A DNA stretch of 64,000 bases from a phage, in sequence record PV805633.1; one strand, 5' to 3'. How positions within the stretch are numbered: position 1 is the first letter of the stretch; the number at the start of each line of letters is the position of its first letter. Both the position numbers and the translations under genes were made by a program. Shown here one piece after another: positions 5,737 to 59,042 of the stretch. Below the pieces are notes generated by a model. The model saw nothing but the letters and a program-made list of their open reading frames with translations. It was not told the DNA's origin and did not search any database.

Positions 5737-6185
5737 GTGGCTCAAGACGCTAAGGAATATAAAATGCAACTGTTAACCGCCCGTGAATACCTGAAAGTAG
5801 ATATCGCTAACAACTATGGCTTAGACAAAAAGACATGGGATGAGCGTATTAGCTGGTTCGATGAGAACGAAGCTAACCTGCTCAATCTGGTAGATGAAGC
5901 TGAAGAATCTGCACTGTTCTACGCAGGTGTAAACGCTTGGAAAGATATGAAAGCTGGTAAGCCTATCGGTTATGCCGTAGCTCTGGATGCTACATCATCT
6001 GGCTTGCAGTTACTGGCTTGCTTGACTGGTGATCGTTCTGCTGCTGAATTGTGTAATGTAGTTAACTACATGGGCGAGAATGGTAAGCCATTACGACGTG
6101 ATGCTTATACAGTTATCTATCACAAGATGCTGGACATCCTTGGTGAATCATCCCGTATTAAACGTAGTGATACTAAGCAGGCCGT
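5737..6185 (+). CDS. phage RNA polymerase II large subunit, exon 1 (motif A)
   Basis: LDATSSGLQLLACLTGD matches T7 RNAP motif A; frame ends 2 codons into the insertion; RIKRSDTKQAV is the first half of motif B. Confidence 0.7.
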
Positions 6186-6991
6186 TAACCTATAAGTCAT
6201 GGCGGCCTTTAAACCGGGTGAACTCATGGAACATCCCTAGTGGACAATCATGAGCCAAGTTGGTAACGTAGAAAGCTCAATAAGGAGCATTCTATGTCAG
6301 AATTCAAAACGTGCAGTCGATGTAAAGAATTACTTCCTATCGAAGTATTCCCAGAGACTAAAAAAGCAATCACAGGACTCAAGACTAATTACGAGAATCG
6401 TTGCAGACCTTGCAAGGCTGCTGCTGCTCGTGAATGGCGTAAAAATAATCCCGGTTACACTGGAACTGGGATTCTTAAGGCAATACCGGAAGAGCATCGT
6501 AATGGTATTCAGCAGTCTCACTTAGACTGAGAGATGCAAAGAGCAGATGTAAAAAGCTCGGTAAGCCTATGCCTGATTGCACAGTAGAGTACTTATTTGA
6601 AATCCTTAAATCACAGGAATTCAAATGTGCTTTAACTGGTGCAACCTTAGTAATTGAGTCGGGACATCCCTTGTGTCTATCATTAGACCAGATAGAGCCA
6701 AGCAAGGGATATAGTATTGATAATGTTCAATGGTTAGCTTGGTGTGTAAACCGAGCAAAGGGTGACCTTTCTACCAATGACTTTATTGATATGTGTGATG
6801 CTGTTTTGAATAACCAAAAGGTGCAGAGACTATCGAAAAGCAGCGTAAGCTGAACTTAGTAGAGTAGGCCCAAGTGGGTCGAAGCGCCCGGCTAGACTAA
6901 TAGTCTAGATGATATAGTCCGAACTCACTGGTAACAGTGAGATGCAGGTAAAGCTGCTGGGGAAGATTAACGACCTTCCTTGAACATAATG
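6186..6991 (+). mobile_element. putative group I intron carrying an HNH homing endonuclease
   Basis: Splits motif B; exon 1 ends in T, intron ends in G; GCGGCC guide sequence about 16 nt in pairs with the exon end GGCCGT with U-G at the splice site; P7-like AGACTA/TAGTCC and S-like GATGATATAGTCCG; internal ORF has its own AAGGAG SD. Confidence 0.6.
6294..6853 (+). CDS. HNH-family homing endonuclease, disrupted by a 1-nt frame change near 6500-6510
   Basis: N-terminal CSRCK...CRPCK zinc ribbon (ORF 6294..6530); C-terminal LRLRDAKSRCKKLGKP...CALTG...SLDQIEP..GYSIDNVQW..CVNRAKG in another frame (open from 6503, ORF 6569..6853). Confidence 0.55.
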
Positions 6992-7787
6992 TATGACTGC
7001 ATTCTATGGTTCAGAAGCCAAGCCTAAAGAAGTATTCGGTGAAGGTATTCGTCTCAAGACTTTTGAGAATGTAATGGAAACAGTTGCTAGTGGACCTTGG
7101 GCACTGAACAAGTTCTTACTGCAATGTGGTGACCCGGATGCTAACCGTTACGTATGGATACTGCCTGACAACTTCCATGCTGTCATTAAGGTCATGGTTC
7201 CAGAAGTACAGACTGTTAACTTCTTAGGTAAGCCATTCGACATCACTCGTATGGTTCAGGGTACTGAAGATAAGACTCGTATGCTCTCTGCTAACATCAC
7301 CCACTCTATTGATGGAATGGTGGTACGTGAGATGCTACGTCGTTGTAACTTCAACATGAACCAAGTGAACTATGTTAAGCCCCTCTGTGAAGGAACCAGT
7401 GAGTATATGCTGGGTACTAGCGAGAACTACGACATGGTTAGTCAACTGTGGCATAACTATGAGAAATCAGGATTCCTGTCTACCCGTATCTTTGATTATC
7501 TGGATTCTGACTCAATTAAACTGGTTGATACAGATGTAATCATGGCTATGCTTAATACCATGCCTAAGAAACCATTCCCTGTAATGACCGTACATGACTG
7601 CTTCCGTTGCCACCCTAACTACGGTAATGACTTGCGTCGTCAGTACAATCAGATTCTGTCTGACATTGCTAAGAGTGATCTACTGGGCTTCATCCTGTCT
7701 CAGGTACTGAGACAAGAGTTCTCTGCTGGTAAGCTGGATGACAGCCTCTGGCAGGACATCCTTGAAACGGATTATGCATTAAGTTAA
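6992..7787 (+). CDS. phage RNA polymerase II large subunit, exon 2 (motifs B and C)
   Basis: MTAFYGSEAKPK matches T7 MTLAYGSKEFG; VHDCF matches T7 motif C IHDSFG; exon 1 + exon 2 = about 414 aa, close to N4 gp16. Confidence 0.7.
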
Positions 7788-40700: not shown

Positions 40701-43700
40701 ATCACCCAGAGAGGTTTTCAGAATATCTACTGCATCAGTAGGTAAGTAGCCAGACTTATCAAACTCGACCATCATATCAACAGCAGGTTTCAGATTACCT
40801 TCCAGGGCTTTGGTCAGATTTTCAGACATAGCTTCACGGGACATTTTATGTACCTTGATGCCCAATGCCTGAGCCAGTCCTAGCTGGAAGTCAGAGAACG
40901 CTTGGCTGTTTTCATTACTCAAGTCGATAGTAGAGAAGGTTGGCAGAATTGCTTCACGAACCAGTTTACTGGATTGTGGGTTATTCTTACCAAGCATCTG
41001 CATACGACCTACACGGGTCATGTTGTAACCGTAGTGGATAGGTGTATCCAGTCCATCCTCTTGTTCTTTTAGCTGATTAATTAAACCAAACAAGGAATCA
41101 TATGCCATAGACACAGACAGGTTTTTACCTTCCAGAGATTTGGCAGTGTTTTCATTCAGCAAATCAGGATTAAGAGAACCAGCACCCATCAGTTCCAGAA
41201 TGCCGTCTCGACCTAATGCTTCATAGAAATTAACCATCGGCATGTGTACACGGAACTCCGTAGCCTGTTCAGCTTTCAGAGCAGCTTTCTGTTCTGGGGT
41301 ATTCCTAACCGCAGGGTTACGTAACTGAGTTTGAGCCACAGAAGGAATGTCGTCACCGAAGTACGTTTTCTCTTCCGGGTTTACCAAAACAGCTTCTTCA
41401 ATTGCTGTAAGGAAATTATTAATAGGGTCTTTATCAGCCAACTTATTAATAGTGTACAAACCAATAGTCTTATTAGAGTCCGGGTCAATCTCAGACACAT
41501 CCAGCATAGTCTCAGTAACTGCACCCATCTCGATGAGGGAAGACAGAATCTCTGTAGCCATTGCCACTGGAATACCCTTGGTATAACCCAGTGGTGCATT
41601 AGGGTTACGGTTTAAACCCCAGTAGGATTCAATCTTTTGAGCCAGTGAGTTAGTAGCCTCAATCAGAGTCTGGGCATTATCAAACTCAGCCAGAATACTT
41701 TCTGGTAACAGAGATGCATCTACACCAGTAATAGCAGCTACGTCTTTCATGTCTTTAATGGCAGCATTCTGTGTAGCAGTCAGTCGCCATTGCAGACCGG
41801 CAAGTACAGCAGTCTCTAACAACTGGTCATTGAACTTAAAGGTATCCCCGTCTTTCTCTACGATGTTAAGTAACTTACCACCTACCCAACGGTTAGCCTC
41901 AGTACCTTCTGCAAAACGTTTACCAACATTTTTATTAGCAAGGAACTTAGCCAGTCGTTCAGACAGAGTAGCCTTCAGAGTTTCCCCAAAGTCCATCAAG
42001 TCCTGATAACGTTCTAACACATCACCTGCGAGAACGTTATTTTCTTTTTGAGTGAACGCTTCAAAGCGAGCAGCAGAAGACAGTGCTTTCTTGATATCAG
42101 CCAAAGGAGATTCAGAGCCAATGGTACGGGACTTAGGTTCTTCCGGTAAGGTAAATGCTTTCAGGAACTGGTTCGGTGTCTTCTCATTGTTATAGACAGG
42201 GAACACTGCTTCCATTCCAGAAAGGGGTTTGCCACCCACTGTATAATCTGCTTTCAGCTGAGCCAGTGATACTTCATCCTTCTCCACGTTGTTAGTGTTA
42301 CGACCAGAGGTATCTACACCAACCAGTATCTGTGCATTATTAGCTTCAACGAAAGACTGAACAGTATTGAATTGTTCAGCAGTCAGCTTCTGATTATCAA
42401 ACAGTTGCAGAGATACGAATGGTTGTTCACTACCTTTATAGAAGGTAGAGCGAATAGCACCTGTATCCAGAGACATATCACGATAACCATCGTGACCAAA
42501 TACATCGGACAGGCTGATATGGTCGCCATTAGAACCAACCACAGTACCATCAGCAAACAGCCATGGACTCTCCCTACGATCACCATACTTATTAAGAGTT
42601 TCCTGTGAAATAGTATTTTCTTTCACATAAGCATCTCTCTCAGATTCAGTAGGTTGTTCGACGGTATCCTCATTAGTGGGGGTAGCCTCATCTACAACCG
42701 GGCTAGTCTTTTCAGACTTAGGTACTTTCTCTTCCTGTACAGGTGTAACTTCTGGCTGGGAGAATGTATTACGTACATAGTTCATAAAATCATTACGTGC
42801 TTGAGAAGGAGAAGACCATACTTCCCGTGTGCTACGTAAACTAAAGATTCGACCTTCAGGAGTCATTACGTAAGGTACATTTGTTTCACCGTACTTAAAT
42901 GAAGTGAGCACGTCTGACTTACCAGTAACAGTGCTTTCCCCTGGAATGACAATAGTCTTACCACCAGTAGAAGGAACAGCACGAACACCCTCAATATCCT
43001 TACCAAGAGAAATATACTCTTTACCGTTGTAATCAAAGTACTGACCTATCTGCATATAGGTAGCTTGTTGCTTACCAGTAAACTCAGCAGTTTTCATCTC
43101 CGGGCCATTAGGTACAGACGTACTTTCAGACTTAGGCTTAGATACTTTCTCTGGTTCTGACTTAGACTCTACAGTGTTAGGAGCAGTTTTATTGTTTACC
43201 ACTGGTTTAGCTTTAGATTGTACAGTAGTAGTGTCCTCTTGCACTGGTGCAGGGGTTTCATCAACCTGATTCACTGGTTCATTAGTCTGTTGAGACTGAG
43301 TGGCATTAAGACCACCTTGACGGAACTCTTTAACTACCTGGGCAGCTGGCTTGTTCAGACGTGAATCCAACGAGGTAACTTTCACATGAGAAACATTAAG
43401 CTCCGGGTAAGCCGTAGCAAGTGCGTTAGCAATATCAGCTACGGTCTTAGCTTCCAGCGCTACTTGCTGGGCAAACTTAACAGACTTGGTATCATAAGGA
43501 TTGACACCGAGGCCAGTACGACTACGTACCCATTCACGGGTAGGCGTGAGAGCCTGATAATGAACAGACTTATTCTTATCCGCATTCCCCGAAATCAGAT
43601 GCTCATTCAACGCTCCGACCTTATTCTGCATGTGCTGGGCGAACTTCATAAAATCGCTCAGATAAGCGGAGGCCAAATCGAAGTTACCAGAGTTATACGC

Positions 43701-46034
43701 AGAACGAATGCGTTTCGCATGTTGCAACGCAGAGTACTGTCCTTCATTAGAACGAGACTCGTCGGTTTTAATCTGTTTACTAACGATGTCTTGACGACGT
43801 AAGCCCAGTTCTTCTGCTTTAGCATCATACTCACGTGCACCCTGTAATAGAGCAGCAGCTGATTGCAGGGCAGCACGTTGACGATTATTCAGTGTAATCT
43901 TACCTTCACTCGCATGCTTCAGAACCATGTTCACTGAATCTGCATCCAGTACTTCTGGAGACATATCAGCAGCCATAGCAATGTTGTTTGCTTGGGCTTG
44001 GTTAGCTTCTTCAGTAGCTTTCAGTTTACCTGCTTCAGCCTGTTCCTGAATCATAGAATGGATGGCACGGAATGCACGAAGTACTTTAGGGGTATTCTGT
44101 ATGTTAGCCATCAGGCCGGAGAACTGGTCTACGATTGCAGCAGCAGGAGAACCTTGTTCCAGATTAGCCAGAGCACCTGGGTCACGGTTAATGAAGCTAT
44201 CCATAGACATGATGTTGTCATACATCTGGATTGCAGCTTCCATTTGAACGTTAGGGTCTTCAGCAGTATTAACCAGGTCAGCCATCTTCTGAATAGCTTC
44301 CACACGGTTAGTGGAACCAGAAACAGCTTCACGGATTACTGGGCTGGCTTGTTCCAATTCTACTGGGTCAAACTTCATTGCCTGGGTTAAGTCAGCAGCA
44401 TACTGGGTAGCAGCAGCCTTCTCTTCTGGAGTGATGTCCATTGCATCTACTGCTTCCTGTACAGTTGCTTGTGCTTGCTCTGCTTGAGCAGCAGCTTCCT
44501 GTGCAGCAGCATTAACCGTAGCATCAGCTACAGGGGATGCTTGTTCATTACGCTTAGCAACTTCTTCACCACGTTGAACCAGGATGTTAGTAAGAGGGGA
44601 TGCAGCTTTAGCTAATGTTTTACCAACCAGAGAAGCACCTGCCAGAGTAGTACGAAGAGCGGGGCCAGCAGCAGCACCGGCAGCTTTAACAGTTGCACCT
44701 GGAGCTTGAGCAACCCCAGCACTACCGAAGCCATAGAGTGCACCAAGACCCGCTTGCTCACCGACACCTTTGAGGGTATCTCGGGATGCATCAACATTTT
44801 CCTTGATTGCACGGTTCTGTGCGAACTGACCAAAGCCTGATTGAGTACCCTCTTCAAAAGTCTGAGCACCAAGGTTAGTAAGGGCTGCCCCAGCAGAACC
44901 AACCCTCATGGGGTTAAGTTCAAACTTAGATACTAACGGACCCATAGCAGCAGCAACTGGAGCAGTTAAGCCAGCAGCAATGATACCTGTTTCGGATGCA
45001 GTCTGACGACGTGCTTCATCAGGAGATAAACCATCAGCAATATGTTGTTGGTAAACAGGAGACTTACTTGCCAGTTCTGGATGGGACATCTTCATGATTT
45101 CAGAAGCAGTCTGTTGGTATGCACCACCAGCTTCCATACCACCGATTGCAATAGCAGGTGCAGCAACACGACCAGTAGACAATGCAACCTGTGCAGGACG
45201 TGAACCTAACCCAGCAGCTAAGGTAATACCCTTAACAGCTTTATCACCACCTACCATTACTTTACCGAGTGCAGATACACCACGGATAAGAGGACCACCA
45301 GTAAAGAGGGAACCAACACCTTCACTCAGTCCATCTGAGGCAGCCATACCATTATCAAGTGTATTAGCAACAGAGTCGAAAGCGTCACGACCAATGCGAG
45401 ACAGGGAGGCAACCAAATCGCTCTCCCCATTTTTGATGTCCTGTTCATAGAGTTTCTGGTTCTTTTGAGCAGAAATCTGGTTCTGATTCTGAACAACTTT
45501 ACGGGTAGCATTCAGTGCATCAGACTGTAGACTATGCACGCCTTCATTCAACCAATCCATCCCGGAAGCAATGGTTGCCCCGGCATTATCATTGACCAGA
45601 CCTGCGCCAAGAGCAGCAATGCCCCCAAGGGTATTAGCAACACCAAGACCAACACCAGAAAGAGTATCGCCAAATGCTTCTGCGTTAGTACGCTGTTTAG
45701 ATAAGTCCTGACGTACAGCATCCGCAGCATTAGCTCGGCTATTAAGAATCTGTAAACCTTGCTCATTACCGTACTTATTAATGATTTCTAAAGGGGAGGC
45801 TTGAGTGAAATCTGCTTGAAGTGAACCTGGTTCGAATGCACCGATTCCAAGATTACCTACTCGTCCAGTCTGGAGATTGTAAGCATTCTCTGGGGTTAAT
45901 TGGAAAGGGTTTTGCCCTTGTGCAGCTTGCTTCTGAGCGGTTGCAGTAGAGACATCGACTTGCTTAGCATTAGTGATGCTGTCTGCGAAACCTGCCAGAC
46001 GGTCAAATGTTGACATAGCATGTTTCCTGTTCAA
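34770..46034 (-). CDS. virion RNA polymerase (N4 gp50-like giant vRNAP), 3754 aa
   Basis: Intact ORF; central T7-like motifs EADGVTNGPINAMVLM (A), LKRGIAKNPLTITIYGSG (B), KIFDGMN (C); AGGAAAC SD. Confidence 0.8.
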   Translation of the reverse strand: MNRKHAMSTFDRLAGFADSITNAKQVDVSTATAQKQAAQGQNPFQLTPENAYNLQTGRVGNLGIGAFEPGSLQADFTQASPLEIINKYGNEQGLQILNSRANAADAVRQDLSKQRTNAEAFGDTLSGVGLGVANTLGGIAALGAGLVNDNAGATIASGMDWLNEGVHSLQSDALNATRKVVQNQNQISAQKNQKLYEQDIKNGESDLVASLSRIGRDAFDSVANTLDNGMAASDGLSEGVGSLFTGGPLIRGVSALGKVMVGGDKAVKGITLAAGLGSRPAQVALSTGRVAAPAIAIGGMEAGGAYQQTASEIMKMSHPELASKSPVYQQHIADGLSPDEARRQTASETGIIAAGLTAPVAAAMGPLVSKFELNPMRVGSAGAALTNLGAQTFEEGTQSGFGQFAQNRAIKENVDASRDTLKGVGEQAGLGALYGFGSAGVAQAPGATVKAAGAAAGPALRTTLAGASLVGKTLAKAASPLTNILVQRGEEVAKRNEQASPVADATVNAAAQEAAAQAEQAQATVQEAVDAMDITPEEKAAATQYAADLTQAMKFDPVELEQASPVIREAVSGSTNRVEAIQKMADLVNTAEDPNVQMEAAIQMYDNIMSMDSFINRDPGALANLEQGSPAAAIVDQFSGLMANIQNTPKVLRAFRAIHSMIQEQAEAGKLKATEEANQAQANNIAMAADMSPEVLDADSVNMVLKHASEGKITLNNRQRAALQSAAALLQGAREYDAKAEELGLRRQDIVSKQIKTDESRSNEGQYSALQHAKRIRSAYNSGNFDLASAYLSDFMKFAQHMQNKVGALNEHLISGNADKNKSVHYQALTPTREWVRSRTGLGVNPYDTKSVKFAQQVALEAKTVADIANALATAYPELNVSHVKVTSLDSRLNKPAAQVVKEFRQGGLNATQSQQTNEPVNQVDETPAPVQEDTTTVQSKAKPVVNNKTAPNTVESKSEPEKVSKPKSESTSVPNGPEMKTAEFTGKQQATYMQIGQYFDYNGKEYISLGKDIEGVRAVPSTGGKTIVIPGESTVTGKSDVLTSFKYGETNVPYVMTPEGRIFSLRSTREVWSSPSQARNDFMNYVRNTFSQPEVTPVQEEKVPKSEKTSPVVDEATPTNEDTVEQPTESERDAYVKENTISQETLNKYGDRRESPWLFADGTVVGSNGDHISLSDVFGHDGYRDMSLDTGAIRSTFYKGSEQPFVSLQLFDNQKLTAEQFNTVQSFVEANNAQILVGVDTSGRNTNNVEKDEVSLAQLKADYTVGGKPLSGMEAVFPVYNNEKTPNQFLKAFTLPEEPKSRTIGSESPLADIKKALSSAARFEAFTQKENNVLAGDVLERYQDLMDFGETLKATLSERLAKFLANKNVGKRFAEGTEANRWVGGKLLNIVEKDGDTFKFNDQLLETAVLAGLQWRLTATQNAAIKDMKDVAAITGVDASLLPESILAEFDNAQTLIEATNSLAQKIESYWGLNRNPNAPLGYTKGIPVAMATEILSSLIEMGAVTETMLDVSEIDPDSNKTIGLYTINKLADKDPINNFLTAIEEAVLVNPEEKTYFGDDIPSVAQTQLRNPAVRNTPEQKAALKAEQATEFRVHMPMVNFYEALGRDGILELMGAGSLNPDLLNENTAKSLEGKNLSVSMAYDSLFGLINQLKEQEDGLDTPIHYGYNMTRVGRMQMLGKNNPQSSKLVREAILPTFSTIDLSNENSQAFSDFQLGLAQALGIKVHKMSREAMSENLTKALEGNLKPAVDMMVEFDKSGYLPTDAVDILKTSLGDNKSFVALMALMEYARYLNSDDRANFTTPLYVEADGVTNGPINAMVLMTGGKFTPDWIKNTAKGGLFFGRAGKTMNEHCSIDDNVDLYEASTNGLQQALNELRTTYRNNVPVMNQINHLQKLMDLFIKDFNLNEDGTLDLKRGIAKNPLTITIYGSGARGIAGKMVSAITDTIYERFSDVLQARAADPSISPAMAMFGKEAASEADAQAMLDTFLTSMEALTGKIPAKRKGKLFIKEVDGALTGKLDPQKFTVSGNALKNLQENMLHLFVEPMRTGIRNTVGEGLMYSTENLQKATQIQSLVLQDMFQQAVQAKLAEKEKDPTWKKGDFLTQKELNEIQESLSPLAPMIETGSQTFYLAGSESTDVANQVLATNLDDRMRVPMSIYAPSQAGVAGIPFMTIGTGDGMMMQTLSTMKGAPKNTLKIFDGMNIGISDITDASRKANEAVYTSWQGNPIKAVYESFSEFLKNVDFDKLSDKTIDDIARSALDFEQLSHISRVEGDRQYKIDMIKNSGVNLIERNLRNIALSVDIRHKVMNQVQTTVDQMAAVGAPYVNNGKISLEGLTVDQQVAKLNELFDAELNKRRDAVRAAKADPVKEVPTKEVPAMEQVGRVLKSGVRLLSNTAITKLAKEMSPEQQAVLKEIQKSLAAKDYKVVYGTPAQLDAYAIEKNITRPAPEDIEAAEAGNAYGWTNFDDKTIYLVTPSLETLVHELVHASTFESVLAHYEGTPNEAVQNIEDLMNQFRNLDVMDESPAVREAYADALNTINGHLSNGFIEPAMAKAAALNEYMAWGLTNRELISKQKKTTALKAMVQSVYEAIKRLVFGRKKAPANADDMFSGLLFNSSVVMRGQAPTAAVAKDTTLFHNKAYGDNTRLEELGQTFDKLITNYIGSEPVQQVIREGKFSDAKKHATKVTRDVQAHGFTMNMQEQRLFTNIVAALATEAAISPAALSRAQEYYAHVTKNLTVESFMTDPDSTNPADRYYAQQKFDTIMGANNIEFDAQGRSSILPTFVGLAMVSEEVRSVLANIPVMKADKKSGNTVDAMLTNIGTAAMASLNARVAGDTKATNVQEGMDALAQTIMQTSLNAQSFYDSVATPSGNAIDRANQYLVDSIDVLSTRVLESAREVAANTKNPLVKGAAHAAQLMAAIATEKNGANVAEGVMVAMNQGKVWQPFHDLVNDLTGRTKSNASVYDLIKAVRAQVQADRQQFREHLPTTIASKFSRKLTKDEWKAMYTGMGKTDLAVLRDTMSLAEIRDLLSDQKIVDREVNKLEADLQKQAGRNWPLINRKSKQLAQYMINGTVGKNLLRNATAISRMLGERKTTRSIVDVAQLDKLITLYALEAMNKSDREMLSSLAQTEVEGMDFATSYLVGQRKDEMAKAKSNMRATLNQYKGYIPSETKQGVSLVVAEDSEFGDLIEKSYVRLGTYQGSSANRGLARSYYFAPVQAQAPFSQGILQNVRNTAGGVDLGTGFTMGSMVAGRITDKPSVDRIAKALARGERGNEPLLPVYNAKGDVVAYEQSINPNMLKHIEGENHLARAIGVWRGRQVEEAKAQRFNDMLIENLYSMYKEDIKMSAANKSQYVNLFGSKLDPVTADALKLMNSETRRKAEKLFGEGELWVRRDMLNDALGYRAASIGDAWSGNSRWSPETLNTFKKAILGLAGNRAYKYLMGGENLVQNLVKDAKTLIVVKSVVVPVVNFLANLYQMVARGVPVKNIAKSIPQKTAEINQYLKSRLRQVDAEAELRAATNPNQIRKLKAEIQSITDSHKRMSIWPLIEAGEFSSIADAGIGRDDILITEGKLHEYMEKLADKLPKSVRAAGRYALITKDTALFQGIQKTVEYSDFIAKAIIYDELTQRKGKTREEALGRVTEEFINYDRLPGRFRGYMESVGLMWFYNFKIRSAKVAVSMIRNNPVHAAMAMLAPTPTMFGNVGLPIQDNIFSIAAKGSLDYSWGFGQGLRAHNLNPWMNLVN

Positions 46035-46081: not shown

Positions 46082-46100
46082 AAAAAAGCCCCGTAGGGCT
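46082..46100 (-). terminator. rho-independent terminator downstream of the corrected virion-protein stop
   Basis: Minus strand reads AGCCC-TACG-GGGCT followed by TTTTTT. Confidence 0.65.
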
Positions 46101-46119
46101 TTTATTAGTATGAAGTATT

Positions 46120-48074
46120 TTAAGGCATTTTCACATACCCAGGTATGCCTTGGGCTTGGCGTATATACCGTATAGCACGCTCCTGGTTTTCTTTCTCAGC
46201 CTCCCGATCTACGGAAGCCTGTGATCGAAAGTTACGAGGAGCCAGGTTTTGCGGATCAGCCTGTACCTGCCCCTGAGCATTTTTAAGCATTGCAGCAGCT
46301 CTAGCAACAGCCTCCTGTCGTGCAGGTAACAGTGCAGTAAGTGCAGTCTGACCTGTAGCAATCTTATTTGGGTGTTTGACAGTGCAGCTACGGCAGCATC
46401 ATATGCAGTCTGTGCTGCCTGAATATTCTGCATAGCCTGAGCACGACCAAGGTTACGTACACTTGCTTCAAGGGGTTCACCACGTTTTAACCCCTCAATC
46501 ATTTGGTCTACCTGACGGTCATTAAGTCGCAAGCCATTACCGGCTTCTGGGGTTTGCCCTATAGTTAGATAATCAATAAGACGTCCTGTATTACTTTCCG
46601 GTACGTTAGTCATTGCACGTTGAACAACAACACCTGCCATAGCAGGAGATACATTAGCACGCTGAGCAATATCATTGATACGAGCCACAACCCATTGTTT
46701 ATCTGCCCCCTTAAAGTCACCCTCTAGTAATCTGTTAGCAACTTCCCCAACAGTAGAAGTGTCATTTAAGGCAGGTAAATAATCAGGAGCAATACTTCCA
46801 GCATTGTCCTCCATAGAACGAGTACCAATCATACCGGTAGCCAGAGTAGATACTGCCTGATTACCTTGGTTATTCTGAACCATAGCTAGTGGGTCAGCCC
46901 CTACTTCAGCTTGGGCAATAACAGGTTTCATCTCTTCCCAAGTCATATCCTTATAAGCACCTGGAGTAGAGTTAGGCAGAGCAGCCCAAGTATCTTTAAG
47001 GTTACCGTTCTTACGGGCCTCGAAGATAGCCCTACCAATCTTATCCTGGTTCTCAGGAGAAAGAGGCTGGCTTTGCCAATCTGGACCAAGAACTTTAGGA
47101 GCGAAGTCTAGCAGAGTAGCTTGGTTAATCTGGAATGCACCAACAGGAGAAGCACCCTGCTTCGACTTCATACTATCCTGATGCTTAATTACATCACCAA
47201 TACTCATTTGAGTAATAGGAGTAGATGTACCAGCAAACTGGTAAGTAACATCATAAGGAGAACCCTGACGAGTACCAGCAGTACCTGGGGCAGACGTAGC
47301 ACCAACATTGTTACCGTAAACACCCGGATATGCTCGTGCAAGCATTTCCTGCAAACGTGCCTGTGCAACCGGAGACAGATGCTTACTATAAGATTCTGCC
47401 AGAATACGGGCATCGTCAGCATTCTCAGCACCACGAGTAATCAGTGCCATTACCCCCGTAGCAGCCTGACTATCAGCATCATTACGTTGAGCAACACCTA
47501 AATCAAAACGATTCTGTGCCTGATTAATAGCCTGACCACCCTGACCTTGAAGACGACTCAGCATGTCCAATTGCTGGTCAGCAGGGAGTGCAGACAATGC
47601 ATCACGGGTCTGACTTAATGCAGCATTAATACGGTTCTGGTCACCCGACTGATAAGCCTCAGACAGCAAACGAATAGCAGGGGAAGCATTATCTAATGCA
47701 GTGTTAGTATCCCGTAAACGATCAAAGTTATAAGTATTGTAGTCATTGGTTCCCTGCTGACCTTGTTGAGTCAACAGTGTACCTGCTCGCTCATCAAGGT
47801 TTTGGAGGGTACGCTGGTTTATCAATGAAGGGTCAACCCCCTGAAACAGTGCACCAGATGCCAAAGCATTGCGGTACTCAGTAGGGTCTTGGTACTGCAT
47901 AGCATTCATCATGACGGCATTGCCAGCCTCCTGCTTGGCAGCGTTCTGGAAATTACCCAGTGCATCACTTAAGCCGGAGGTGGCGTTACCAATCATGCTA
48001 CCAAATGTGCGAATGCTGTCACCAACTCCAGAGAAGTTAGGTGCATCAACATTTCTCCACGTTATCTGAGCCAT
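46120..48074 (-). CDS. virion structural protein (N4 gp51/52-like), with apparent 1-nt frame change near 46366-46372
   Basis: ORF track 46209..48074 ends in Leu-rich out-of-frame sequence; alternative frame gives a plausible Ala/Gln-rich tail ending at 46120 just before the terminator. Confidence 0.5.
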
Positions 48075-48086
48075 GATGGTTTCCTA

Positions 48087-57926: not shown

Positions 57927-58427
57927 CTATTCAAAAAGTTTACGGTCAGCCTGAATTTGCTTACCCAACTCAATTAGTTGGTTGTCACGGAGTCTAACAG
58001 TTGCCCGGAGTTCTTCAACCAAACGTCTGCCTTCTTCAAGACTGTTGTCGAGTCTGGCTGCATGGCTTGCAAGACTTCTGCACTCAAGGGTTCCGGCTTC
58101 GGCTTGACGTTTATATACCGATGCTCGTCTTTCAGACTGTTGCATCCGGCTGTCGTAATCACTGCTAACGCGAGCAAGCTCGCTTGCGTAATTACTCTCA
58201 GCCGTCTGCAACCGGGAAGTAAGTAACCCGACTTCATAACTATGGTTTCTTTGGAGAGCATTGTATTTGTCCTGTAGTTTTTGTGTTGCCTTCTGGTCTT
58301 CAACCTTTTGAGCATCCCATCTCTTTTGGACAGTAGACTGTCCATTGGAATTGCCCCAAAAGTAAATGGTGGCCCCGAGGACCACCACCAGAAGATAAGG
58401 CCAACCTTTAGAGATTAGCATCTTCAT
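57927..58427 (-). CDS. i-spanin (Rz-like)
   Basis: N-terminal [17 protein letters not shown] then coiled-coil periplasmic domain; start set at internal Met. Confidence 0.55.
57974..58237 (-). CDS. o-spanin (Rz1-like) lipoprotein embedded in the i-spanin gene
   Basis: Alternate frame inside i-spanin; signal peptide with lipobox-like TAGC; Pro-rich mature region. Confidence 0.5.
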   Translation of the reverse strand: MKSGYLLPGCRRLRVITQASLLALAVITTAGCNSLKDEHRYINVKPKPEPLSAEVLQAMQPDSTTVLKKADVWLKNSGQLLDSVTTN

Positions 58428-59042
58428 TACATGCCTCCAGTGGTACATTACCGATTCGGTTAGCTACCCAACCATACGTAAAGTCTGGCATGTTCAATGA
58501 GGTGTAGTGGTTCAATTGTTTAGCATCAAGCAACTTAATCATTACCTGACATGCTGCAACTTTGCCTCGTTTTTTCTGTAATGCTTTATATGCATTAACA
58601 GTACCTGCACCGACTTTACCATCAACTTGTATTTTAGGGTAGTCTTTGCCATCACGGGACATTTCATTAAGGGATTGCTGCAACCACTTAGCTGGTCTGG
58701 TTACACCGGTATTAACACCAGCATCAACCAGTTTGTGTGTTACAGCAGGAGATATATCAGCGAAGGCTACGAAGTTAGGCTTAATAACGTAGTCATCAAT
58801 GTATATCTCAGCAGCCATTTCTTTCGATAAACCCTTCATGGAACCATCCCAACCATACTCAGTAGCCAGAACTTCTTTGTGAGACTTAGCTACTGATTGG
58901 GTAATACCATGATTGGTTTCCCCACCTGGGTCACGAGGATTGTTTACGTACCCCCTTCCATATAGAACACTGCCCCCAGAATAGCAGCGATAACTCCTCC
59001 CACCGCACCCCCTTTTGCAGCAAGTTTCTGTTTAGCTTTCAT
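58408..59042 (-). CDS. SAR-endolysin, GH108-like N-acetylmuramidase with PG_binding_3-like C-terminus; apparent 1-nt frame change at a G5 run (plus strand C5 at about 58951-58955)
   Basis: ATG-initiated MKAKQKLAAKGGAVGGVIAAILGAVFYMEGG stops 4 codons after the run; downstream frame continues GYVNNPRDPGGETNHGIT...DGKVGAGTVNAYKAL. Confidence 0.55.

Follow-up and report, generated by a model that had tools for sequence, protein, structure and literature searches.

In phage N4, cryo-EM placed gp51 around the portal of the full virion, and the protein was gone after ejection; its residues 1–359, which adopt a T7 gp15-like “leg” fold, assemble into a hollow decameric channel (PMC13434306; Nat Commun 2026). 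The same authors demonstrated that lipid bilayers are pored by N4 gp51, and proposed that gp51 builds the periplasmic tunnel while its C-terminus and the N-terminal domain of the virion RNA polymerase (vRNAP) make up an inner-membrane complex (PMC13434306). For the homologue gp72 from Pseudomonas phage DEV, the disordered C-terminal part was proposed to become ordered upon vRNAP binding, and cysteine depletion was noted in the ejection proteins (PMC11445570). N4 gp51 thus travels inside the virion and leaves it at infection; it would then build the decameric tunnel by which the DNA ejectosome crosses the periplasm and which the giant vRNAP and the DNA use afterwards. In phage G7C the homologue (YP_004782181.1, 654 aa) is annotated with a “confirmed presence in G7C virion”.

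We analysed a stretch of phage DNA of 64,000 nucleotides (sequence record PV805633.1; its full length is referred to below as the window), which represents a G7C-like (Gamaleyavirus, Schitoviridae, “N4-like”) coliphage. The nearest whole genome is G7C, with 95.9% identity over 57 kb, and no phage record lies above the 95–99% identity band to the window. The ORF list gives a minus-strand frame of 621 aa at 48074..46209, which a preliminary description had taken for an N4-like virion protein. This assignment is borne out by the PHROG 6126 profile, PDB entry 11mn_A and synteny, and the ORF is the homologue of N4 gp51, the periplasmic-tunnel ejection protein. Its upstream part comprises the following features:

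46370..48074, minus strand: in-frame part of gp51, codons 1–567 and the first two bases of Gln568, starting with the ATG at 48074–48072 (ORF list, PHROG 6126, PDB 11mn_A, synteny)
48080..48085, minus strand: AGGAAA, Shine–Dalgarno-like, located 5 nt before the start codon of gp51 (read from the sequence)

PDB 11mn_A (“66 kDa protein”, 359 aa, ten chains) matches gp51 residues 1–357 at E = 3e-129, and this close relationship to the N4 fragment of known structure predicts the T7 gp15-like “leg” fold for the window protein as well. The PHROG 6126 match (E = 4.8e-296) runs over profile positions 1–662 of 667; this span is covered only by the repaired protein, in which one missing base is restored as described below. 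In the ORF list the gene stands within a minus-strand cassette composed of a gp52-like gene (48551–48087), gp51 (48074–46120) and the gene for the 3754-aa vRNAP (46034/46016–34770). The annotated order is identical in G7C and PhAPEC7, where gp51 is likewise flanked by the gp52 homologue on one side and the gene for the giant vRNAP on the other, and the window gene thus occupies the position of an ejection-cassette member, with all three genes on one strand. N4 gp51 and the window copy are alike in homology, in the order gp53-gp52-gp51-vRNAP on one strand and in the lack of cysteines: neither the 569-aa body of the window protein nor its 82-aa repaired tail contains a single Cys, in line with the cysteine depletion of ejection proteins (PMC11445570). 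Unlike N4 gp51, the window copy belongs to a G7C-like phage and, as recorded, has its last 82 codons scrambled by a one-base deletion.

Pfam gave no match for the whole repaired gp51 or, even at E = 1, for its central 177 aa (residues ~249–425, 46800–47330 on the minus strand). The label “lysozyme containing protein” carried by the relative SP5M found no substantiation. The central motif VGAFQINQATL may loosely resemble lytic-transglycosylase motifs. In the N4 study, no peptidoglycan hydrolase was shown by the ejection proteins (PMC13434306).

Two observations concern the neighbouring vRNAP gene. Its ORF is listed from a TTG at 46034 (3754 aa), while alignment with PhAPEC7 sets the real start at the ATG 46016–46014 (MSTFDRL). 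At 42215–43122 on the minus strand it contains ~900 nt, in frame, which are missing from PhAPEC7; the vRNAP of G7C is of similar length (3748 aa).

DNA alignment with PD205, G7C, PhAPEC7 and Bp4 demonstrates that one base is missing in the window between 46369 and 46368, the window having ACCCA-AATAAG where all four relatives have ACCCAGAATAAG. This gap falls inside the interval 46366–46372, near which the preliminary description had placed a switch of frame. The features around the break are as follows:

46366..46370, minus strand: missing-base site, CAAAT in the window versus CAGAAT (Gln-Asn) in the relatives; the gap is backed by all five whole-genome references
46120..46368, minus strand: true C-terminal 82 codons (NKIATGQ...GYVKMP) and TAA, in the −1 frame relative to the ORF as recorded; conserved in intact homologues; pN/pS 0.13 versus PD205
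46209..46367, minus strand: out-of-frame read-through of 52 codons, rich in Leu, Arg, His and Cys, with the TAG at 46211–46209; pN/pS 1.9

Judging from the sequence, the lost base may be G, or else A (A4 read as A3) if the phage uses CAA for Gln568. A CAA codon here would imply CCCAAAAT as the true sequence and a plain A4-to-A3 under-call, the protein being unchanged either way. The CAGAAT of the relatives is not a pure homopolymer, and a homopolymer under-call holds only with the assumed CAA codon.

Adding one base results in an ORF of 1956 nt encoding 651 aa, collinear and equal in length with the PD205 protein UVK80524.1; the two tails are nearly identical, both ending in ...GIPGYVKMP, and across the junction the repaired protein reads ...ALSNTQNK.... 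The −1 frame is open from ~46398, encodes NKIATGQTALTALLPARQEAVARAAAMLKNAQ...GIPGYVKMP and terminates with the TAA at 46122–46120, which is the stop at 46120 expected from the preliminary description. In contrast, the ORF as recorded has the C-terminus IRLLQVRLHLLHCYLHDRRLLLELLQCLKMLRGRYRLIRKTWLLVTFDHRLP. The implausible Leu-rich ending suspected there is evident from composition: its 52 residues include 32.7% L, 17.3% R, 7.7% H, 3.8% C (2 Cys) and no A, compared to 7.9% L, 13.7% A, 9.0% Q and 0% C in the upstream 569 aa. The proposed Ala/Gln-rich continuation resembling the preceding part was recovered as well, the repaired 82-aa tail having 19.5% A, 12.2% Q and 0% C. Peptides LLQVR and TWLLVTFDHR belong to the tail as recorded, and NFRSQASVDR and IATGQTALTALLPAR to the repaired frame. 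The read-through at 46209..46367 is no real coding frame.

The repaired gene ends just before a terminator:

46082..46103, minus strand: intrinsic terminator between gp51 and the vRNAP gene, with an 8-bp stem AAAAGCCC/GGGCUUUU, loop UACG and a U-run

A simple terminator scan did not include this element among its results; it was recovered by direct folding, in which the hairpin AAAAGCCC-UACG-GGGCUUUU has −12 kcal/mol (z = −2.66). Its extended stem begins 16 nt past the gp51 stop, in agreement with the terminator placed about 15 nt beyond it in the preliminary description, whose coordinates all proved correct. The terminator sequence is kept in the relatives, and PhAPEC7 has a terminator annotated at the equivalent place.

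Among the 69 phage records matched by the flagged region, PD205 ranks first (92.2%), followed by G7C and PhAPEC7 (~88%). In tblastn, the 136 aa spanning the repaired junction were found in one place with at least 80% coverage in 69/69 related phage records; in the 60 records listed, they form single pieces with 99–100% coverage, the most distant being ~40% identical. With PD205 the identity of this segment is 93.4% (E = 3e-63, single piece), and the most N4-like relative aligned (L011) has 62% identity in its best segment. Eight full-length IMG/VR relatives are also continuous through the junction. Hence the alignment of homologues, suggested earlier as a check, supports the frame switch: all those examined read through in one frame, and none end where the ORF as recorded ends. 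The gp51 homologues of G7C (654 aa), PhAPEC7 (654 aa) and PD205 (651 aa), which have 88–92% DNA identity across the gene and are followed by the same terminator, are continuous ORFs, whereas the window is one base short in the CAG-AAT pair. When viral, metagenome and genome contigs were searched, the deletion-bearing DNA pattern had no matches, while the intact pattern was matched in three viral contigs. No exact-protein record was found for the 621-aa product as recorded or for the neighbouring 887-aa product.

Substitutions separating the window from PD205 indicate which frame has been under selection. Among the 30 differences in the 246-nt tail, 21.5 are synonymous and 8.5 non-synonymous when read in the repaired frame (pN/pS 0.13), while the frame as recorded gives pN/pS 1.9. 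This difference means that the tail has been coding in the repaired frame for as long as these phages have been diverging. With this substitution pattern, the deletion would be either extremely recent or absent from the phage itself.

A second break of the same kind occurs in the endolysin gene:

58951..58955, minus strand: G-run in the EGGY motif of the endolysin, one base short in alignment with KKP3715 and G7C (gene 58408–59042)

At this site the window has GAAGGGGGTAC, KKP3715 has GAAGGGGGGTAC and G7C has GAAGGAGGGTAC. The break splits the endolysin (N4 gp61-type, GH108 + PG_binding_3) into ORFs of 32 aa and 143 aa. When repaired, the protein, with an expected length of 211 aa, matches PF05838 from residue 24 (E = 1e-19), and the break is located in EGGY (Glu-Gly-Gly-Tyr) at the start of the GH108 domain, the motif with the catalytic glutamate of GH108. 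Of the 40 records listed for this site, every one apart from the two U1G entries has one base more than the window. Comparison of the translated PhAPEC7 genes with the window gave the endolysin as one further isolated frame break besides the split RNAP2 gene. A plaque-forming phage without an endolysin is implausible.

The phage U1G (MZ394712) is instructive because its record is annotated with the same 32-aa and 143-aa endolysin pair, and its gp51 is split into 84 and 571 aa. Its sequence comes from MinION reads alone, assembled by Canu (PMC10754912). Since U1G is a plaque-forming lytic phage, these endolysin and gp51 breaks must be mistakes of the record. When five genomes were compared, U1G had 11 unique 1-nt indels, all of them contractions, some of which remove a single base that separates two runs of another base (AAAA[G]A, AAA[C]AAA, CC[T]CC); the A[G]AA and GG[A]GGG losses of the window are of the same type. 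In Bp4 (NC_024142), gp51 is cut into three ORFs by C-run contractions. Both U1G and Bp4 therefore resemble the window in having gp51 broken by one-base contractions, although only U1G also has the endolysin G-run break. Their gp51 breaks are elsewhere in the gene than that of the window, and U1G has ~6 breaks and 11 unique contractions versus 2 breaks in the window. The fragmented gp51 of U1G, Bp4 and the window suggests that frameshift-split gp51 is a recurrent database artefact in this phage group.

The multi-reference frameshift scan, with break totals representing our own count, revealed 2 well-supported frame breaks in the window, ~6 in U1G (including gp25, gp51 and the endolysin) and 1 in PhAPEC7; in Bas96, G7C and PD205, the scan sites came only from the window or U1G breaks or appeared against a single reference. 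Compared to PhAPEC7, Bas96 and G7C, the window has 6 unique 1-nt contractions and 1 expansion (at 33686), while for these three short-read-era genomes taken together the numbers are 0 and 4, respectively (Fisher p = 0.015 versus the window), the numbers being small and the window tally of 6 including 46369, which was entered by hand. The following intergenic one-base contractions in the window are unique with respect to all covering references:

8051: T6 to T5
8951: contraction in a C-run
13440: A4 to A3, just before a start codon
33732: A6 to A5
34064: T6 to T5, in a terminator tail

Some of these intergenic contractions may be real, the window being on its own branch (95.9% to G7C).

The preliminary description gave no view on the biological origin of the frame switch; our data favour an artefact of the sequence over recoding. 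The apparent gp51 frameshift is most probably a single-base deletion from sequencing or assembly, and we infer that it arose in the data rather than in the phage. The loss is an isolated one of 1 nt relative to all relatives, the frame downstream of it is still under purifying selection, and errors of the same type are present elsewhere in the window, including an indispensable gene (the endolysin). In nature the gene would be an ordinary intact homologue of N4 gp51 of 651 aa, with its TAA at 46122–46120 just before the terminator. The loss itself may represent an under-call in or between short homopolymer runs, such as long-read or flow-based platforms produce. The protein as recorded is doubtful because its scrambled tail loses the conserved C-terminal end and gains two cysteines.

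If the deletion was a genuine and very recent frameshift in the sequenced stock, the phage would have a 621-aa gp51 with the last 82 residues replaced by 52 unrelated ones, and this change would be either tolerated or impairing. The deletion is indeed present in the sequence as given, and the low pN/pS of the repaired frame is equally compatible with an artefact and with an event of very recent date. Moreover, the N4 construct of residues 1–359 still makes the decameric channel in vitro (PMC13434306), which means that assembly of the tunnel core is independent of the C-terminus. However, all relatives have retained the tail, even the most distant records with their ~40% identity across the junction, and the C-terminal region is the part proposed to be located at the inner membrane and to contact vRNAP (PMC13434306; PMC11445570). 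The shifted tail would also bring 2 Cys into a Cys-free ejection protein. The second break in the window would abolish the endolysin, and fixation of two disabling mutations in one lytic phage is unlikely; the same endolysin break is moreover present in the nanopore-only record of the plaque-forming U1G. We therefore consider a genuine mutation in the stock to be unlikely, and it is quite improbable that the deletion is real and that the phage propagates with the conserved 82-residue gp51 C-terminus replaced by an unrelated sequence. If this was nevertheless true, the gp51 end proposed to contact the inner membrane and vRNAP would be dispensable, or it would be rescued by low-level spontaneous frameshifting. 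The window would then present a natural C-terminal truncation experiment on an N4-type periplasmic tunnel protein, and the evidence is against this.

A full-length protein, perhaps together with a shorter form, might also be produced by programmed −1 ribosomal frameshifting or transcriptional slippage at 46366–46372, since both frames are open over the junction and the conserved tail is in the −1 frame. Some phage structural genes do yield two products by frameshifting, as in the tail-chaperone G/GT pairs. The window shares with lambda G/GT the two overlapping frames and the location of the downstream part in the −1 frame; unlike that system, it is devoid of a slippery site, a stimulatory structure and a conserved two-frame layout, and it neither functions in this way nor belongs to this class. 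The X XXY YYZ heptamer is absent from the overlap and from the whole ORF, and the longest homopolymer of the overlap (A5 at 46284) is situated 85 nt downstream of the junction. With −25.6 kcal/mol, the 106 nt at 46375–46270 show no more structure than shuffled sequences, which average −27.5 (z = +0.57). As a two-frame layout is absent from all relatives, such a device would need a de novo origin in one genome, and recoding at this site is very improbable. Equally improbable is a split gene, in which a truncated gp51 would act together with a separate 56-aa product of the ORF 46290–46120 (starting MLKNAQ...). This ORF is ATG-initiated and stands in the repaired frame, but its Met is internal to the conserved tail in all relatives (AAAMLKNAQ / AAAMLQAAQ), and sequence inspection revealed no evident ribosome-binding motif upstream. 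In addition, 27 conserved residues that lie after the break and ahead of this Met would be lost, and no relative is split at that point. Taken together, recoding and a truly split gene have a very slight probability, and the preferred explanation remains a base lost during sequencing or assembly.

The analysis contains no new biology; its outcome is a corrected gene model and a sequence-quality warning. For gp51, the appropriate annotation is one gp51-type ejection protein of 651 aa, or else a frameshift flag until resequencing, in place of a 621-aa product whose Leu-rich end is spurious. The endolysin at 58408–59042 calls for a similar correction. Two breaks in 64 kb warn of possible further one-base errors, such as in promoters and terminators between genes.

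The split gene for RNAP2, a subunit of the RNA polymerase of the middle genes (N4 gp16 homologue, 5737–7787, plus strand), consists of a 152-aa N-part (5737–6195) and a 264-aa C-part with its own ATG (6993–7787), which are ~800 nt apart. Among the coliphage records of the collection, none extends across this insert; at most 20% of a 1-kb query was covered, with matches restricted to the flanks. Rfam at the gathering threshold gave nothing in the whole window, including no intron model at the insert. The insert may be an intron, or the gene may be truly split. The same layout of RNAP2-N, endonuclease and RNAP2-C is found in Achromobacter phage JWAlpha, where the endonuclease is intact (186 aa), while in the window the endonuclease ORF of the insert is in two frames (6294–6530 and 6569–6853). 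At ~6500–6509 (plus strand) about 8 nt are present where 9 are expected, which might reflect a third error of one base or else a homing endonuclease in natural decay. Elsewhere on the plus strand, at ~25303 and ~30293, the DNA polymerase and gp44 genes of the window are uninterrupted, and PhAPEC7 has intron/HNH insertions at these places.
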